A DNA stretch of 10,920 bases, taken from a virus (lineage: Duplodnaviria > Heunggongvirae > Uroviricota > Caudoviricetes). Both the position numbers and the translations under genes were made by a program. Location: the IMG/VR virus record IMGVR_UViG_2526164651_000001. The stretch is one strand, 5' to 3'. Under the pieces are notes generated by a model. That model saw only the letters and a list, made by a program, of their open reading frames with translations. It was not told where the DNA came from and made no database searches. Of the stretch, positions 394-704 are shown one piece after another; the stretch's first letter is position 1, and the number at the start of each line of letters is the position of its first letter.

Positions 394-468
394 TGGAGCG
401 GGCAGCGGGAATCGAACCCGCATCATCAGCTTGGAAGGCTGAGGTAATAGCCATTATACGATGCCCGC
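394..468 (-). tRNA. tRNA-Gly (anticodon UCC), glyT-like
   Basis: Reverse complement GCGGGCATCGTATAATGGCTATTACCTCAGCCTTCCAAGCTGATGATGCGGGTTCGATTCCCGCTGCCCGCTCCA folds as a cloverleaf: 7-bp acceptor stem, anticodon loop CTTCCAA, T-loop TTCGATT, encoded CCA. Appears identical or near-identical to E. coli glyT from memory. Confidence 0.85.
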
Positions 469-471
469 ATA

Positions 472-547
472 TGGTGCCGGCTACCGGAATCGAACTGGTG
501 ACCTACTGATTACAAGTCAGTTGCTCTGCCTGCTGAGCCAAGTCGGC
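472..547 (-). tRNA. tRNA-Thr (anticodon UGU), thrU-like
   Basis: Reverse complement GCCGACTTGGCTCAGCAGGCAGAGCAACTGACTTGTAATCAGTAGGTCACCAGTTCGATTCCGGTAGCCGGCACCA: anticodon stem ACTGA/TCAGT, loop CTTGTAA, T-loop TTCGATT, encoded CCA. Acceptor stem has an A5.C68 mismatch. Only 3 nt from the Gly tRNA. Confidence 0.8.
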
Positions 548-549
548 GC

Positions 550-626
550 TGGCCCACCACCGAGGACTCGAACCTCGCACCGTCAACTTAGAAGGTTGAT
601 GCTCTATCCGGATGAGCTAGTGGTGG
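550..626 (-). tRNA. tRNA-Arg (anticodon UCU, decodes AGA)
   Basis: Reverse complement CCACCACTAGCTCATCCGGATAGAGCATCAACCTTCTAAGTTGACGGTGCGAGGTTCGAGTCCTCGGTGGTGGGCCA: perfect 7-bp acceptor stem (C1-G72), D-stem GCTC/GAGC with A20, anticodon stem TCAAC/GTTGA, loop CTTCTAA, T-stem CGAGG/CCTCG, encoded CCA. Does not match host argU as I recall it. Confidence 0.75.
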
Positions 627-627
627 T

Positions 628-704
628 TGGTGGCCCTTGCTGGACTTGAACCAGCGACCTGGCGATTATGAGTCGCTCGCTCTGACCAACTGAGCTAAAG
701 GGCC
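628..704 (-). tRNA. tRNA-Ile2-like (anticodon CAU, probably lysidine-modified, decodes AUA); elongator Met not excluded
   Basis: Reverse complement GGCCCTTTAGCTCAGTTGGTCAGAGCGAGCGACTCATAATCGCCAGGTCGCTGGTTCAAGTCCAGCAAGGGCCACCA: perfect acceptor stem with C4-G69 and C5-G68 (TilS determinants in E. coli tRNA-Ile2), anticodon loop CTCATAA, T-arm GCTGG/TTCAAGT/CCAGC as in ileX. Roughly 90% similar to host ileX by eye. Confidence 0.8.

Follow-up and report, generated by a model that had tools for sequence, protein, structure and literature searches.

A compact Ile2-Arg-Thr-Gly tRNA array in the late operon of a defective lambdoid prophage, common among E. coli and Shigella phages and probably serving codon supply

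The tRNA Array

The window (the whole 10,920-nt stretch of viral DNA analyzed here) contains exactly four tRNA genes according to ARAGORN, all on the minus strand and arranged head-to-tail at positions 394-704, in the order CAU/Ile2, Arg-UCU, Thr-UGU, and Gly-UCC. The genes are separated by 1 nt (A), 2 nt (GC), and 3 nt (TAT). The Rfam tRNA model (RF00005) scores them at 70.5, 56.4, 63.6, and 64.9 bits, respectively (E-values of 1e-10 to 4e-14), all above its gathering score of 29 bits. Explicit cloverleaf parsing gave 7-nt anticodon loops with U33 and a purine at position 37 (CUCAUAA, CUUCUAA, CUUGUAA, and CUUCCAA), and each of the four genes encodes the 3′ CCA. The four genes are thus beyond chance, and scores of 56-70 bits rule out pseudo-tRNAs, although the Thr copy is weakened. 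A first-pass annotation had described four cloverleaf-forming genes with spacers of 1, 2, and 3 nt that serve the codons AUA, AGA, ACA, and GGA; ARAGORN, Rfam, and cloverleaf parsing bear this description out exactly. Little weight was given to single-sequence MFE folding, which judges cloverleaves poorly and yields none even for host thrU.

The first gene (628-704, minus strand) is best read as a tRNA-Ile2 of the lysidine type, which would decode AUA, and as a homologue of ileZ of Stx phages. It is identical to ileZ at 74/77 positions (96.1%), to ileY at 71/77 (92.2%), and to ileX at 89.6%, but to metT at only 54/78 (69.2%). The “Met” label assigned by ARAGORN stems from the use of the anticodon alone, and PGAP labels an identical gene tRNA-Ile. 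Parsing of the cloverleaf gave an acceptor stem of G-C, G-C, C-G, C-G, C-G, U-A, and U-A with A73, such that C4-G69, C5-G68, and A73 are all present; the acceptor-stem pairs C4-G69 and C5-G68 are reportedly TilS determinants, as Ikeuchi et al. are said to have found in 2005. The single A27×C43 mismatch is common to all phage ileZ alleles.

The second gene (550-626, minus strand), a tRNA-Arg(UCU) for AGA and AGG, has a phage-specific scaffold with C1-G72, A20, and G73, in which 21 of 21 stem pairs are Watson-Crick by cloverleaf parsing. The coexistence of C1-G72 with A20 had been pointed out in the first-pass annotation and is indeed seen. The gene matches argU at 58/79 positions and argO at 59.7%, compared with 64/77 (83%) for argN(UCG) of Stx phages and 65/77 for the “Lys”(UUU) gene of PhiR47_1, and the identical allele is present in 20 IMG/VR loci as well as in the related loci L001 and L003. 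In an alignment of this second-slot scaffold, standard pairs fill 97.6% of cells, and nine pairs have changed on both sides when argU is included, two of them within the phage set. This pattern suggests that the scaffold is under structural constraint, which would count for a role in codon supply. The same scaffold, 1 nt past Ile2, carries UCU in the window, UCG in argN, UUU with an unusual C33 (the commonest form in related phages), or UAU; in some related arrays the thrU-derived third gene has also switched to UUU.

The third gene (472-547, minus strand) is a thrU-derived tRNA-Thr(UGU) for ACA, and the fourth (394-468, minus strand) is a tRNA-Gly(UCC) for GGA and GGG. Both had been thought nearly identical to their host counterparts. 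This is true of Gly, which equals K-12 glyT at 75/75 positions and carries the host-type T×T mismatch in the D-stem (cloverleaf parsing), but not of Thr, which matches K-12 thrU at 72/76 and has one difference that breaks an acceptor pair. The Thr copy in the window carries the lineage-specific changes A9G and U68C, with a resulting A5×C68 mismatch in the acceptor stem, in addition to an A52×C62 mismatch that is also found in host thrU. Its Rfam score is 63.6 bits vs. 69.8 bits for the L001 allele, and its acceptor helix is no longer stable in the MFE prediction, for whatever little weight that carries. The same Thr allele is found in the IMG/VR contig L140, and a 1-nt deletion in Thr occurs in one Shigella copy and one E. 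coli copy.

Judging from these identities, the array combines two modules in a mosaic, one consisting of Ile2 and the phage-specific C1-G72 tRNA and the other of the Thr-3nt-Gly pair, which is also found alone on plasmids. The K-12 thrU-tyrU-glyT-thrT-tufB operon has the same Thr-then-Gly order, but there 8 + 85 + 116 nt separate thrU from glyT, as opposed to 3 nt in the array. A fragment of this chromosomal operon was considered and ruled out, given the absence of tyrU, thrT, and tufB, the phage genes on either side, and the 3-nt spacer. The compactness that had been described as unlike that of host tRNA operons is a matter of degree only, the spacers of the source operon in the host being 8, 116, and 6 nt.

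The Late Operon Around the Array

Going downstream, an intrinsic terminator, a promoter-like element, the array, and a phage-21-type holin gene follow one another. The terminator, the Q-like gene, the array, and the holin gene are all on the minus strand, and the same layout is found in the related loci L001, L002, L003, and L005. The candidate for a Q-like late antiterminator is a DUF1133 protein (3009-3563, minus strand; Pfam DUF1133, E = 8e-108; 184 aa in the L003 homologue) with a weak match to Phage_antitermQ (26.6 bits vs. a cutoff of 26). Downstream of it is a module of isrK, the C4 antisense RNA, and its a1/b1 target (2788-2989, minus strand), scored by Rfam at 75.6, 77.6, and 52.2 bits for isrK, C4, and c4-a1b1, respectively. 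An IS600 copy (1423-2685; repeat families D2 and D4) lies between the Q-like gene and the array, with alignment breakpoints at 1422 and 2686; its matches are annotated as IS3-like IS600, and the element is absent from L003. IS600 cuts an ORF6N-domain (antirepressor-like) gene near its 5′ end, leaving the 3′ part in the window (913-1422, minus strand; Pfam ORF6N, E = 1.5e-15), while an intact homologue of 185 aa is present in L003. The array had been placed between the Q-like gene and the holin gene, which is correct as to order but not as to adjacency on the Q-like side, where isrK/C4, ORF6N, and IS600 intervene. The window also contains an IS1, an IS1 copy interrupted by IS600, and an IS3-family element. 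The array lies in the late operon of a decayed, IS-riddled lambdoid (lambda-like) prophage that is evidently defective.

Inspection of the sequence showed a terminator hairpin (AACCCGC-TTTAT-GCGGGTT followed by a T-run; 791-816, minus strand) past the ORF6N gene and ahead of the array, at the place of a tR′-like terminator. The terminator scanner missed it, probably because A/T runs lengthen the stem into the tail; an equivalent hairpin lies upstream of the arrays in L001, L002, and L003. Between this hairpin and the tRNA genes is a sigma-70 promoter-like element (714-743, minus strand) that can be read as TTTGCA-18-TATTAT or TTGCAG-17-TATTAT, with a -10 hexamer that ends 9 nt before the tRNA +1. 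The promoter scan gave one promoter-like site vs. 1.8 expected by chance and is alone no evidence. With scan hits at chance level, the case for a promoter is made by conservation across loci: a TATTAT-like hexamer is found at -14 to -16 in 111 of 116 related loci, and over 10 diverged upstream families conservation is 88% in the -35 region, 67% in the spacer, and 45% further upstream (the corresponding value for the -10 region is circular, the loci having been chosen on that hexamer). The element may thus act as a promoter.

The 292 nt from the Gly gene to the holin start codon (102-393, minus strand) are non-coding and predicted to be structured (-89.1 kcal/mol, z = -4.07, by folding), and no Rfam family was matched there in a permissive search. 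The spacer does not differ from that of L003 at any of the 292 positions, vs. eight differences in the 208 nt upstream of the array. This spacer is the place occupied by stx in Stx phages; as had been claimed, no stx genes are present. The holin gene starts at position 101 and runs off the window (1-101, minus strand), such that only the 5′ part of a phage-21-type class II holin is present (Pfam Phage_holin_2_1, E = 1.8e-11); its homologues in L003 and L001 are annotated as class II holins.

Distribution and Related tRNA Clusters

Of 5,426 complete E. coli genomes, 602 carry arrays of this architecture, in most cases with Lys-UUU in the second slot. The exact array with Arg-UCU, for which RefSeq genomes already have annotations, is present in 16 E. 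coli genomes and in Shigella flexneri, and at least 19 IMG/VR contigs carry it as well. The 16 E. coli genomes, several of them EIEC-like, have the Arg-type array at a median of three copies and at up to five, and the chromosome of Shigella flexneri SFBU1023 carries three; EHEC strains have up to 11 places that match the array. The closest copy of the window is contig L140 (99.96% over 5.3 kb). In E. coli CFSAN029787, an array identical except for two Thr bases lies within an apparently complete 46-kb prophage at mlrA, with a Q-family antiterminator 200 nt upstream. The Ile2, Arg, and Gly genes of the window are identical to alleles in intact prophages and in approximately 20 viral contigs. 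The literature that was searched gave no description of the four-tRNA array and no relevant paper on ileZ/argN/argO, but its coverage was limited and such an absence is no proof. The array is real but ordinary, of a type that is common in E. coli and Shigella phages. The novelty implied in the first-pass annotation was therefore overstated, and the useful outputs of this work are descriptive, with little weight as a discovery.

Since the 1990s, lambdoid phages have been known to carry tRNA genes in the region from Q to the lysis genes. The ileZ-argN-argO cluster of Stx phages (Stx2a_F349, AP012530) likewise occupies the late-gene strand, past Q and ahead of the lysis genes. Its first two genes match those of the array at 96% (74/77) and at 83% with C1-G72 retained, the 1-nt spacer is shared, and ileZ-argN gave a megablast match of 171 nt at 88.4% identity. 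The Stx cluster also shares the upstream promoter-like element (TTGCAA-17-TATTAT). The proposal that the window holds a mosaic, mobile-element-borne array at the ileZ-argN-argO position is thus upheld by homology as well as by position, and the alignments to Stx-phage and host genes that it called for came out at 74/77 for ileZ, 64/77 for argN, 72/76 for thrU, and 75/75 for glyT. However, the second gene has UCU in the array vs. UCG in argN, and the third gene of the Stx cluster is argO, on a different scaffold and after a 13-nt spacer, where the array has Thr-3nt-Gly and no stx after it. With a third gene other than argO, the array is a compositional variant of the canonical trio rather than the trio itself.

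Closer in layout are the Ile2-Lys(UUU)-Thr-Gly arrays of PhiR47_1 (PV340566), vB_EcoM-606R7 (ON470580), and vB_EcoS-689R5, which have the same four slots, spacers of 1, 2, and 3 nt, the same Gly gene, the same position before the S holin, and 93% overall identity. They differ in the anticodon loop of the second slot, which is CCUUUAA (UUU, with C33) rather than CUUCUAA (UCU), and in a Thr gene that is 100% identical to thrU, unlike that of the window. The Lys variant is by far the more frequent of the two: most of the 602 E. coli genomes carry it, vs. 16 with the Arg type. Among lytic phages, T4 and T5 carry tightly packed transcription units in which several tRNA genes are separated by very short spacers and depend on RNase P for processing, and roles in both codon supplementation and counter-defence have been suggested for them; these clusters differ from the array in having 8-23 genes and in not lying between Q and the lysis genes. 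Among Shigella/Salmonella lambdoid and P22-like phages, tRNA genes are also found downstream of Q in SfI (Asn-Thr), Sf6, ST64T, PS3, and P21, with the same proposed role, SfI having a Thr(UGU) gene along with a bias for ACA codons (PMC3636060). These sets differ from that of the array in having one or two genes, Asn and Thr, and would not necessarily be homologous to it.

Codon Use of the Carrier Prophages

Codon use was compared between the mlrA prophage of CFSAN029787 and 53 host genes with Fisher tests. Per 1000 codons in host, late, and early genes, respectively, AUA was used 2.5, 5.4, and 10.1 times, AGA 1.0, 5.3, and 9.7 times, ACA 5.7, 11.7, and 21.1 times, and GGA 6.5, 12.9, and 18.5 times (all p ≤ 3.5e-4). 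The five codons most enriched in the early genes (AGA, AGG, AUA, ACA, and GGA) are those read by the anticodons of the array, a match that supports codon supplementation, and the same five are among the top six in the late genes. A set of 82 IMG/VR loci has the same elevated use of array-served codons. The enrichment in part reflects the lower G+C content of phage DNA; CGG, too, is strongly enriched in late genes, yet is unserved by the array. AAA, the codon served by the Lys variant, is used 33.7 times per 1000 and is not rare.

Possible Functions of the Array

We consider it probable that the array is a lambdoid “moron” tRNA operon within the late transcription unit, supplying extra minor tRNAs for AUA, AGA/AGG, ACA, and GGA. 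E. coli has one or two tRNA genes for each of these codons, and their use by the AT-richer phage genes is two to nine times that by host genes. The array joins an ileZ-type Ile2 gene and a phage-specific C1-G72 tRNA with UCU to a Thr-Gly pair taken from host thrU…glyT. It may be transcribed from the promoter-like element just upstream and, during lytic growth, also by Q-modified RNA polymerase that passes the upstream terminator. RNase P would then cut the polycistronic precursor at each 5′ end, 3′ exonucleases would trim the 1-3-nt trailers back to the encoded CCA, and the products would presumably be charged, with lysidine modification of the Ile2 tRNA. In this particular prophage, broken by IS elements and with the acceptor stem of Thr weakened, the array may be only partly functional.

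Other readings are less probable. It is rather unlikely, in our estimate, that the main task of the array is to replace host tRNAs cut during infection by tRNA-cleaving defence or competition systems such as P2 Old, PARIS AriB, PrrC, or colicin D, with the codon bias being secondary. We know of no nuclease with these four tRNAs as its specific targets, which counts against such a task, and the Gly gene is identical to its host counterpart throughout, while the Arg anticodon loop equals that of argU, with a CNG motif in neither. There is precedent for phage tRNAs acting in this way: the abortion of lambda growth by P2-OLD is due chiefly to cleavage of host tRNA-ThrU(UGU), with Lys(UUU) and others cut as well, and phage Thr(UGU) tRNAs rescue growth (PMC12445682); similarly, PARIS cuts tRNA-Lys, and the tRNA-Lys of T5 rescues infection (PMC11464382). 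However, evasion of P2-OLD involves an anticodon stem that is shortened or lacks the paired CNG motifs, and host tRNA-ThrU gives little or no protection (PMC12445682), whereas the Thr anticodon arm of the window (ACUGA-CUUGUAA-UCAGU) equals that of host thrU and keeps A37 and both CNG motifs (C28-U-G30 and C40-A-G42). Sister arrays speak for defence: the Thr(UGU) anticodon stem of the sister array L139 lacks both CNG motifs, and Lys(UUU) occurs on two different scaffolds even though AAA is common. The second-slot anticodon also does not follow codon use, as AGA + AGG are used 12.6 times per 1000 in loci with Arg(UCU) and 12.1 times in loci with Lys(UUU) (p = 0.42), so that codon demand of neighbouring genes leaves the choice of anticodon unexplained.

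A benefit to the lysogen, in which the array is expressed from its own promoter and kept in multiple copies that aid translation of AT-rich acquired genes such as those of the Shigella/EIEC virulence plasmid, appears improbable to us as well. A conserved, Q-independent promoter-like element directly upstream, the copy numbers of the Arg-type array (up to five per genome, and three in SFBU1023), and the persistence of the array in an IS-ridden, defective prophage are all in keeping with this idea. Multiple copies, however, follow simply from the presence of several related lambdoid prophages, as the up to 11 matching places in EHEC strains illustrate, and individual copies decay, by A5×C68 here and by 1-nt Thr deletions elsewhere. 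No excess conservation of tRNA genes over their flanks was detected (2 substitutions in 305 nt vs. 14 in 1117 nt, p = 0.55, in an underpowered test), and a constitutive promoter would require a terminator before the holin gene, for which folding gave no clear candidate. On a further reading, the array in this genome is a passively carried remnant of a dead prophage, with its genes turning into pseudogenes, and this we regard as very unlikely. IS600 in the upstream ORF6N gene, the further IS elements of the window, and the two lineage-specific Thr substitutions, one breaking an acceptor pair, with a loss of 6 bits, would fit such a remnant. On the other hand, Ile2, Arg, and Gly match alleles of intact prophages, the scores of all four genes remain at 56-70 bits, the promoter-like element is undamaged, and tRNA genes with a promoter of their own are independent of what remains of the prophage.

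Implications

The variation among arrays also suggests a more speculative view of the second slot. It is conceivable, if on balance unlikely, that this slot is a phage-only tRNA chassis (C1-G72, A20, and a GCGAGGUUCGAGUCCYCG T-arm) that has been repeatedly re-targeted by point mutations in the anticodon loop, and that conflict with tRNA-cleaving defences such as P2 Old, PARIS, and PrrC has made the array an evolvable cassette. If this were true, the Arg-UCU form in the window would be one state of the cassette, specific to the Shigella/EIEC lineage. The differences between arrays, i.e., Arg, Lys, and Ile anticodons on one scaffold, a Lys form with C33, and some Thr alleles that lack the P2-OLD cleavage motif, merit a controlled test, which is worthwhile because recent studies found that P2 Old and PARIS kill lambdoid infections through cleavage of exactly tRNA-Thr(UGU) and tRNA-Lys(UUU).

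The array is a fusion of two portable two-gene modules with a conserved promoter-like element of its own, and its four anticodons match the five codons most over-used by an intact carrier prophage. As a probable supplier of minor tRNAs, it would be a clear-cut case of a temperate phage that supplements the codons favoured by its genes.

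The tRNA Genes and Their Identities

Four tRNA genes, the total called by ARAGORN over the whole window, lie on the minus strand: tRNA-Gly(UCC) at 394-468, tRNA-Thr(UGU) at 472-547, tRNA-Arg(UCU) at 550-626 and a CAU tRNA (Ile2) at 628-704. They scored 64.9, 63.6, 56.4 and 70.5 bits, respectively, with the Rfam tRNA covariance model. Transcription runs from the CAU tRNA through Arg and Thr to Gly (slots 1-4). The successive spacers measure 1 nt (A), 2 nt (GC) and 3 nt (TAT), and CCA is encoded in every gene. ARAGORN and reading of the sequence agreed throughout with the coordinates, strand, spacers and anticodons of the first-pass annotation, and the covariance-model check that it proposed placed all four genes (56.4-70.5 bits) above the gathering score of 29.

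Gene identities were established by comparison with fetched K-12 and Stx2-phage sequences, and secondary structure by cloverleaf parsing. The Gly gene is of host type, identical to K-12 glyT at 75/75 positions. The CAU tRNA is 96% identical to Stx-phage ileZ, 92% to ileY, 90% to ileX and 69% to metT; its single mismatch, A27xC43, is also found in the phage ileZ alleles used for comparison. The TilS and IleRS determinants C4-G69, C5-G68 and A73 are present, and an identical gene is annotated as tRNA-Ile by PGAP in two RefSeq genomes; the "Met" label given by ARAGORN is based on the anticodon only. The Arg gene, in which 21/21 stem pairs are Watson-Crick, is 73% identical to argU, 83% to Stx-phage argN (UCG) and 84% to a gene of phage PhiR47_1 annotated as tRNA-Lys (UUU). 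It carries C1-G72, A20, C35 and U36, and its anticodon loop, CUUCUAA, is the same as that of argU. The description of the Thr gene as almost identical to host thrU was too generous: it matches thrU at 72/76 positions (thrT, 67%) and combines the A52xC62 mismatch of thrU with a new acceptor-stem break, A5xC68.

Position in the Late Region

The window is a fragment of a lambdoid prophage disrupted by insertion sequences. In transcription order on the minus strand, DUF1367 and YbcO genes precede a Q-like gene encoding a DUF1133 protein (3009-3563), which also barely reaches the Phage_antitermQ threshold. An isrK/C4 module with a C4-type antisense RNA and its a1/b1 targets (2788-2989, minus; Rfam), an IS600 copy (1423-2685), the remaining part of an ORF6N antirepressor-like gene (913-1422, minus) and an intrinsic terminator hairpin read from the sequence (791-816, minus) all intervene before the array, which therefore does not adjoin the Q-like gene as had been proposed. 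A promoter scan placed a promoter-like element at 714-743 (minus). Beyond the Gly gene, a structured non-coding spacer of 292 nt (102-393, minus; folding z = -4.07) leads to the start of a phage-21-type class II holin gene (101 to 1, minus), which runs off the window. Since E. coli FDAARGOS_944 carries the same region without IS elements, this gene order places the array in the late operon, and comparison with an Stx2 phage upheld the earlier statement that Stx phages carry ileZ-argN-argO and stx at this position.

The isrK/C4/a1-b1 module, inside the late region between the DUF1133 and ORF6N genes, is similar to a regulatory module of the P1 immI-like or Gifsy-1 isrK-anrP-like kind; by analogy with Gifsy-1, isrK may be a short terminated late-promoter transcript. 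A second IS600 copy lies at 8571-9834, making two in the window, together with a complete IS1 (about 4528-5295), a second IS1 split by the second IS600 (7964-8570 and 9833-9998) and an IS3-family element with an rve integrase at the right end (10344-10920). Such IS density is typical of Shigella/EIEC genomes. There is also a hok/sok toxin-antitoxin locus (5764-6088, minus; Rfam sok match, 118 bits), matched by an annotated Hok/Gef family gene in the FDAARGOS_944 region.

Mosaic Origin

The array is a lambdoid late-region tRNA cluster, a known class. It shares with the Stx-phage ileZ-argN-argO cluster the late position, homology to ileZ and argN, and an Ile2-slot 2 pair with a 1-nt spacer, but has Thr-3nt-Gly where Stx phages have argO after 13 nt. 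As argO, the canonical third gene, is absent, the array is a compositional variant of this class. The Thr-3nt-Gly pair also stands alone, with the same spacer, on a 311-kb STEC plasmid, where a methyltransferase gene and holin genes flank it, and on a 145-kb Salmonella IncF plasmid (L141 3001-3154). On the latter, the pair lies about 500 nt from the CDS (2117-2488) for the B subunit of a subtilase-family AB5 toxin on the same strand, which echoes the tRNA genes just upstream of stx, another AB5 toxin.

Because the Ile2-slot 2 pair is common to Stx phages and the Thr-Gly pair is found alone, the four-gene array is a fusion of two portable modules, one of phage type; the other was either captured from the host or kept host-like by recombination. 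The proposal of a mosaic, mobile-element-borne array is thereby borne out by the two modules, the phage neighbours and the ileZ/argN homology. A fragment of the chromosomal operon was rejected, as 8 nt, tyrU and 116 nt lie between host thrU and glyT, vs. 3 nt in the array, and the flanks in the window are phage genes.

Distribution and Variants

PGAP has already annotated the exact array, which many public genomes contain; in the literature covered, which was incomplete, no paper discussing its composition was found. At a coverage of at least 80%, a 341-nt array query found matches in 602 of 5,426 complete E. coli genomes, and it also hit three GenBank phages at about 93% identity (PhiR47_1, vB_EcoM-606R7 and vB_EcoS-689R5), whose slot 2 is annotated as Lys or unannotated. 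Arrays with exactly the Arg(UCU) composition are less frequent: 16 E. coli genomes, CFSAN029787 among them, were found by a 101-nt query spanning slot 2 and its junctions (10/16 at 100% identity), the copy number per genome having a median of 3 and a maximum of 5. A search of GTDB species representatives found the Arg-Thr junction in Shigella flexneri SFBU1023 and E. coli ECMA0423, with three occurrences in each.

In a biased sample of 120 listed IMG/VR contigs, chosen by the slot-2 T-arm, Ile2-1-Lys(UUU)-2-Thr-3-Gly occurs in at least 66 and the window type, Ile2-1-Arg(UCU)-2-Thr-3-Gly, in at least 19; fewer have Lys-13-argO, UCG-13-argO, Lys-Lys-Gly, Arg-Lys-Gly or a UAU slot 2. The commonest slot-2 tRNA (e.g., L002 4171-4247, and many IMG/VR loci such as L010 and L014) has a UUU anticodon in a CCUUUAA loop, giving C33, and an A51xC63 mismatch in the T stem; position 33 is almost always U in tRNAs. 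The same scaffold is found with UCG (argN) and UAU anticodons. In five viral loci (L051, L074, L092, L096 and L109), the thrU-derived slot 3 itself has UUU (G35U plus A26G), producing Ile2-Lys-Lys-Gly or Ile2-Arg-Lys-Gly arrays, and E. coli strains 720632 and TW10690 have the same Lys-in-slot-3 annotation.

The Ile2, Arg and Gly alleles of the window are the common ones of the Arg-type group among the contigs listed, and of the CFSAN029787 (L001) and FDAARGOS_944 (L003) loci. Its Thr gene has two extra changes, A9G and U68C, relative to the Arg-type arrays of L001, L003 and about 20 viral contigs among the matches listed. U68C turns the A5-U68 pair into A5xC68, the Rfam score is 63.6 bits vs. 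69.8 for the L001 allele without the changes, and the acceptor helix was unstable when folded, which is weak evidence. The allele is real rather than an error, because an IMG/VR contig (L140) has the same locus at 99.96% identity, IS600 copy included. Since C68 is paired with G5 in the Thr gene of another contig, L139, the allele of the window may have arisen by recombination or be an intermediate. Array copies in degraded prophages do decay: one of the three copies in SFBU1023 (L132) and one of three in ECMA0423 (L134) have a 1-nt deletion near the Thr 3′ end.

Expression

A comparison of the 60 nt preceding the first tRNA at 116 loci among the matches listed showed a TATTAT-type hexamer at -14 to -16 from the tRNA 5′ end in 111, preceded at a distance of 17 nt by TTGCAx. 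Between ten upstream families (<80% identical mutually), conservation was 88% in the -35 hexamer, 67% in the spacer and 45% further upstream; the -10 value is circular, as families were selected on that hexamer. This pattern suggests a dedicated promoter, whose transcript would begin 2-4 nt ahead of the first tRNA. On the model of lambda and 933W, extra readthrough transcription during lytic growth would be expected from the presence of a terminator 90-110 nt upstream and of the Q-like gene. By the established route of tRNA maturation in E. coli, genes with encoded CCA and spacers of 1-3 nt would require nothing beyond cleavage by RNase P and trimming by 3′ exonucleases. If the putative promoter is constitutive, transcription would have to be halted before the holin gene. 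Folding of the 102-393 spacer gave strong hairpins (three of them long) and no clear terminator. The spacer folds far better than shuffled controls, matches no Rfam family and is 100% identical to that of FDAARGOS_944, against 8 differences in the 208 nt that precede the array; it may act as a terminator or processing region, or encode an unannotated RNA.

Proposed Codon Supply and Alternative Roles

Codon use was tested in the annotated genes of the apparently complete 46-kb prophage of E. coli CFSAN029787 vs. 53 host genes. This relative (L135 10363-28730, L001 and L136 1-4382) is inserted at mlrA (yehV), the classical Stx1-phage site, and has an array identical to that of the window except for the two Thr changes; near its tail-fibre end are a frameshifted ipaH effector gene, a methyltransferase gene and a RelE/ParD pair. 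Frequencies per 1000 codons in host, late and early genes were 2.5, 5.4 and 10.1 for AUA; 1.0, 5.3 and 9.7 for AGA; 5.7, 11.7 and 21.1 for ACA; and 6.5, 12.9 and 18.5 for GGA (every Fisher p <= 3.5e-4). The five most enriched codons of the early genes (AGA, AGG, AUA, ACA and GGA) are those read by the four anticodons, and they are five of the top six in late genes, CGG being the sixth. ORFs around 82 IMG/VR arrays have comparable levels. These data fit the classical idea of codon compensation, stated for SfI (PMC3636060) and reviewed elsewhere (PMC10264068).

Phage tRNAs can also replace host tRNAs cut by defence nucleases. P2 Old blocks lambda chiefly through cleavage of host tRNA-ThrU(UGU), whose anticodon stem is cut at paired CNG motifs, and growth is rescued by phage Thr(UGU) tRNAs without the motif, not by extra host tRNA-ThrU (PMC12445682); tRNA-Lys is cleaved by PARIS, which T5 tRNA-Lys neutralises (PMC11464382). 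In the window, the Thr anticodon arm is that of thrU, Gly is glyT and the Arg loop is that of argU; an obvious nuclease-escape set was therefore rejected, and counter-defence is ranked a minor contributor here. In the sister arrays it may play a part: their commonest slot-2 form is Lys(UUU) though AAA is a common codon, the thrU-type gene has also been converted to UUU in some, and combined AGA and AGG use is equal in Arg-type and Lys-type loci. The Thr(UGU) gene in the L139 array (648-807, minus), moreover, has neither of the CNG motifs cut by P2-OLD, with an anticodon stem of GAUGA/UCAUC and a compensated G5-C68 pair. The array of L139 is diverged, its slot-2 gene being an aberrant 82-nt version called Leu(CAG) by ARAGORN.

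A benefit to the lysogen is possible, and would fit the putative promoter of the array and its several copies in Shigella/EIEC-like genomes, but multiple related prophages would equally be expected to yield multiple copies, and no extra conservation of the tRNA genes over their flanks was detected. The IS damage and weakened Thr gene also fit an inert relic, although three of the four tRNA genes and the promoter-like element are intact. For the array family as a whole, it is conceivable, if rather unlikely, that slot 2 represents a phage tRNA chassis open to re-targeting and shaped by conflict with tRNA nucleases.
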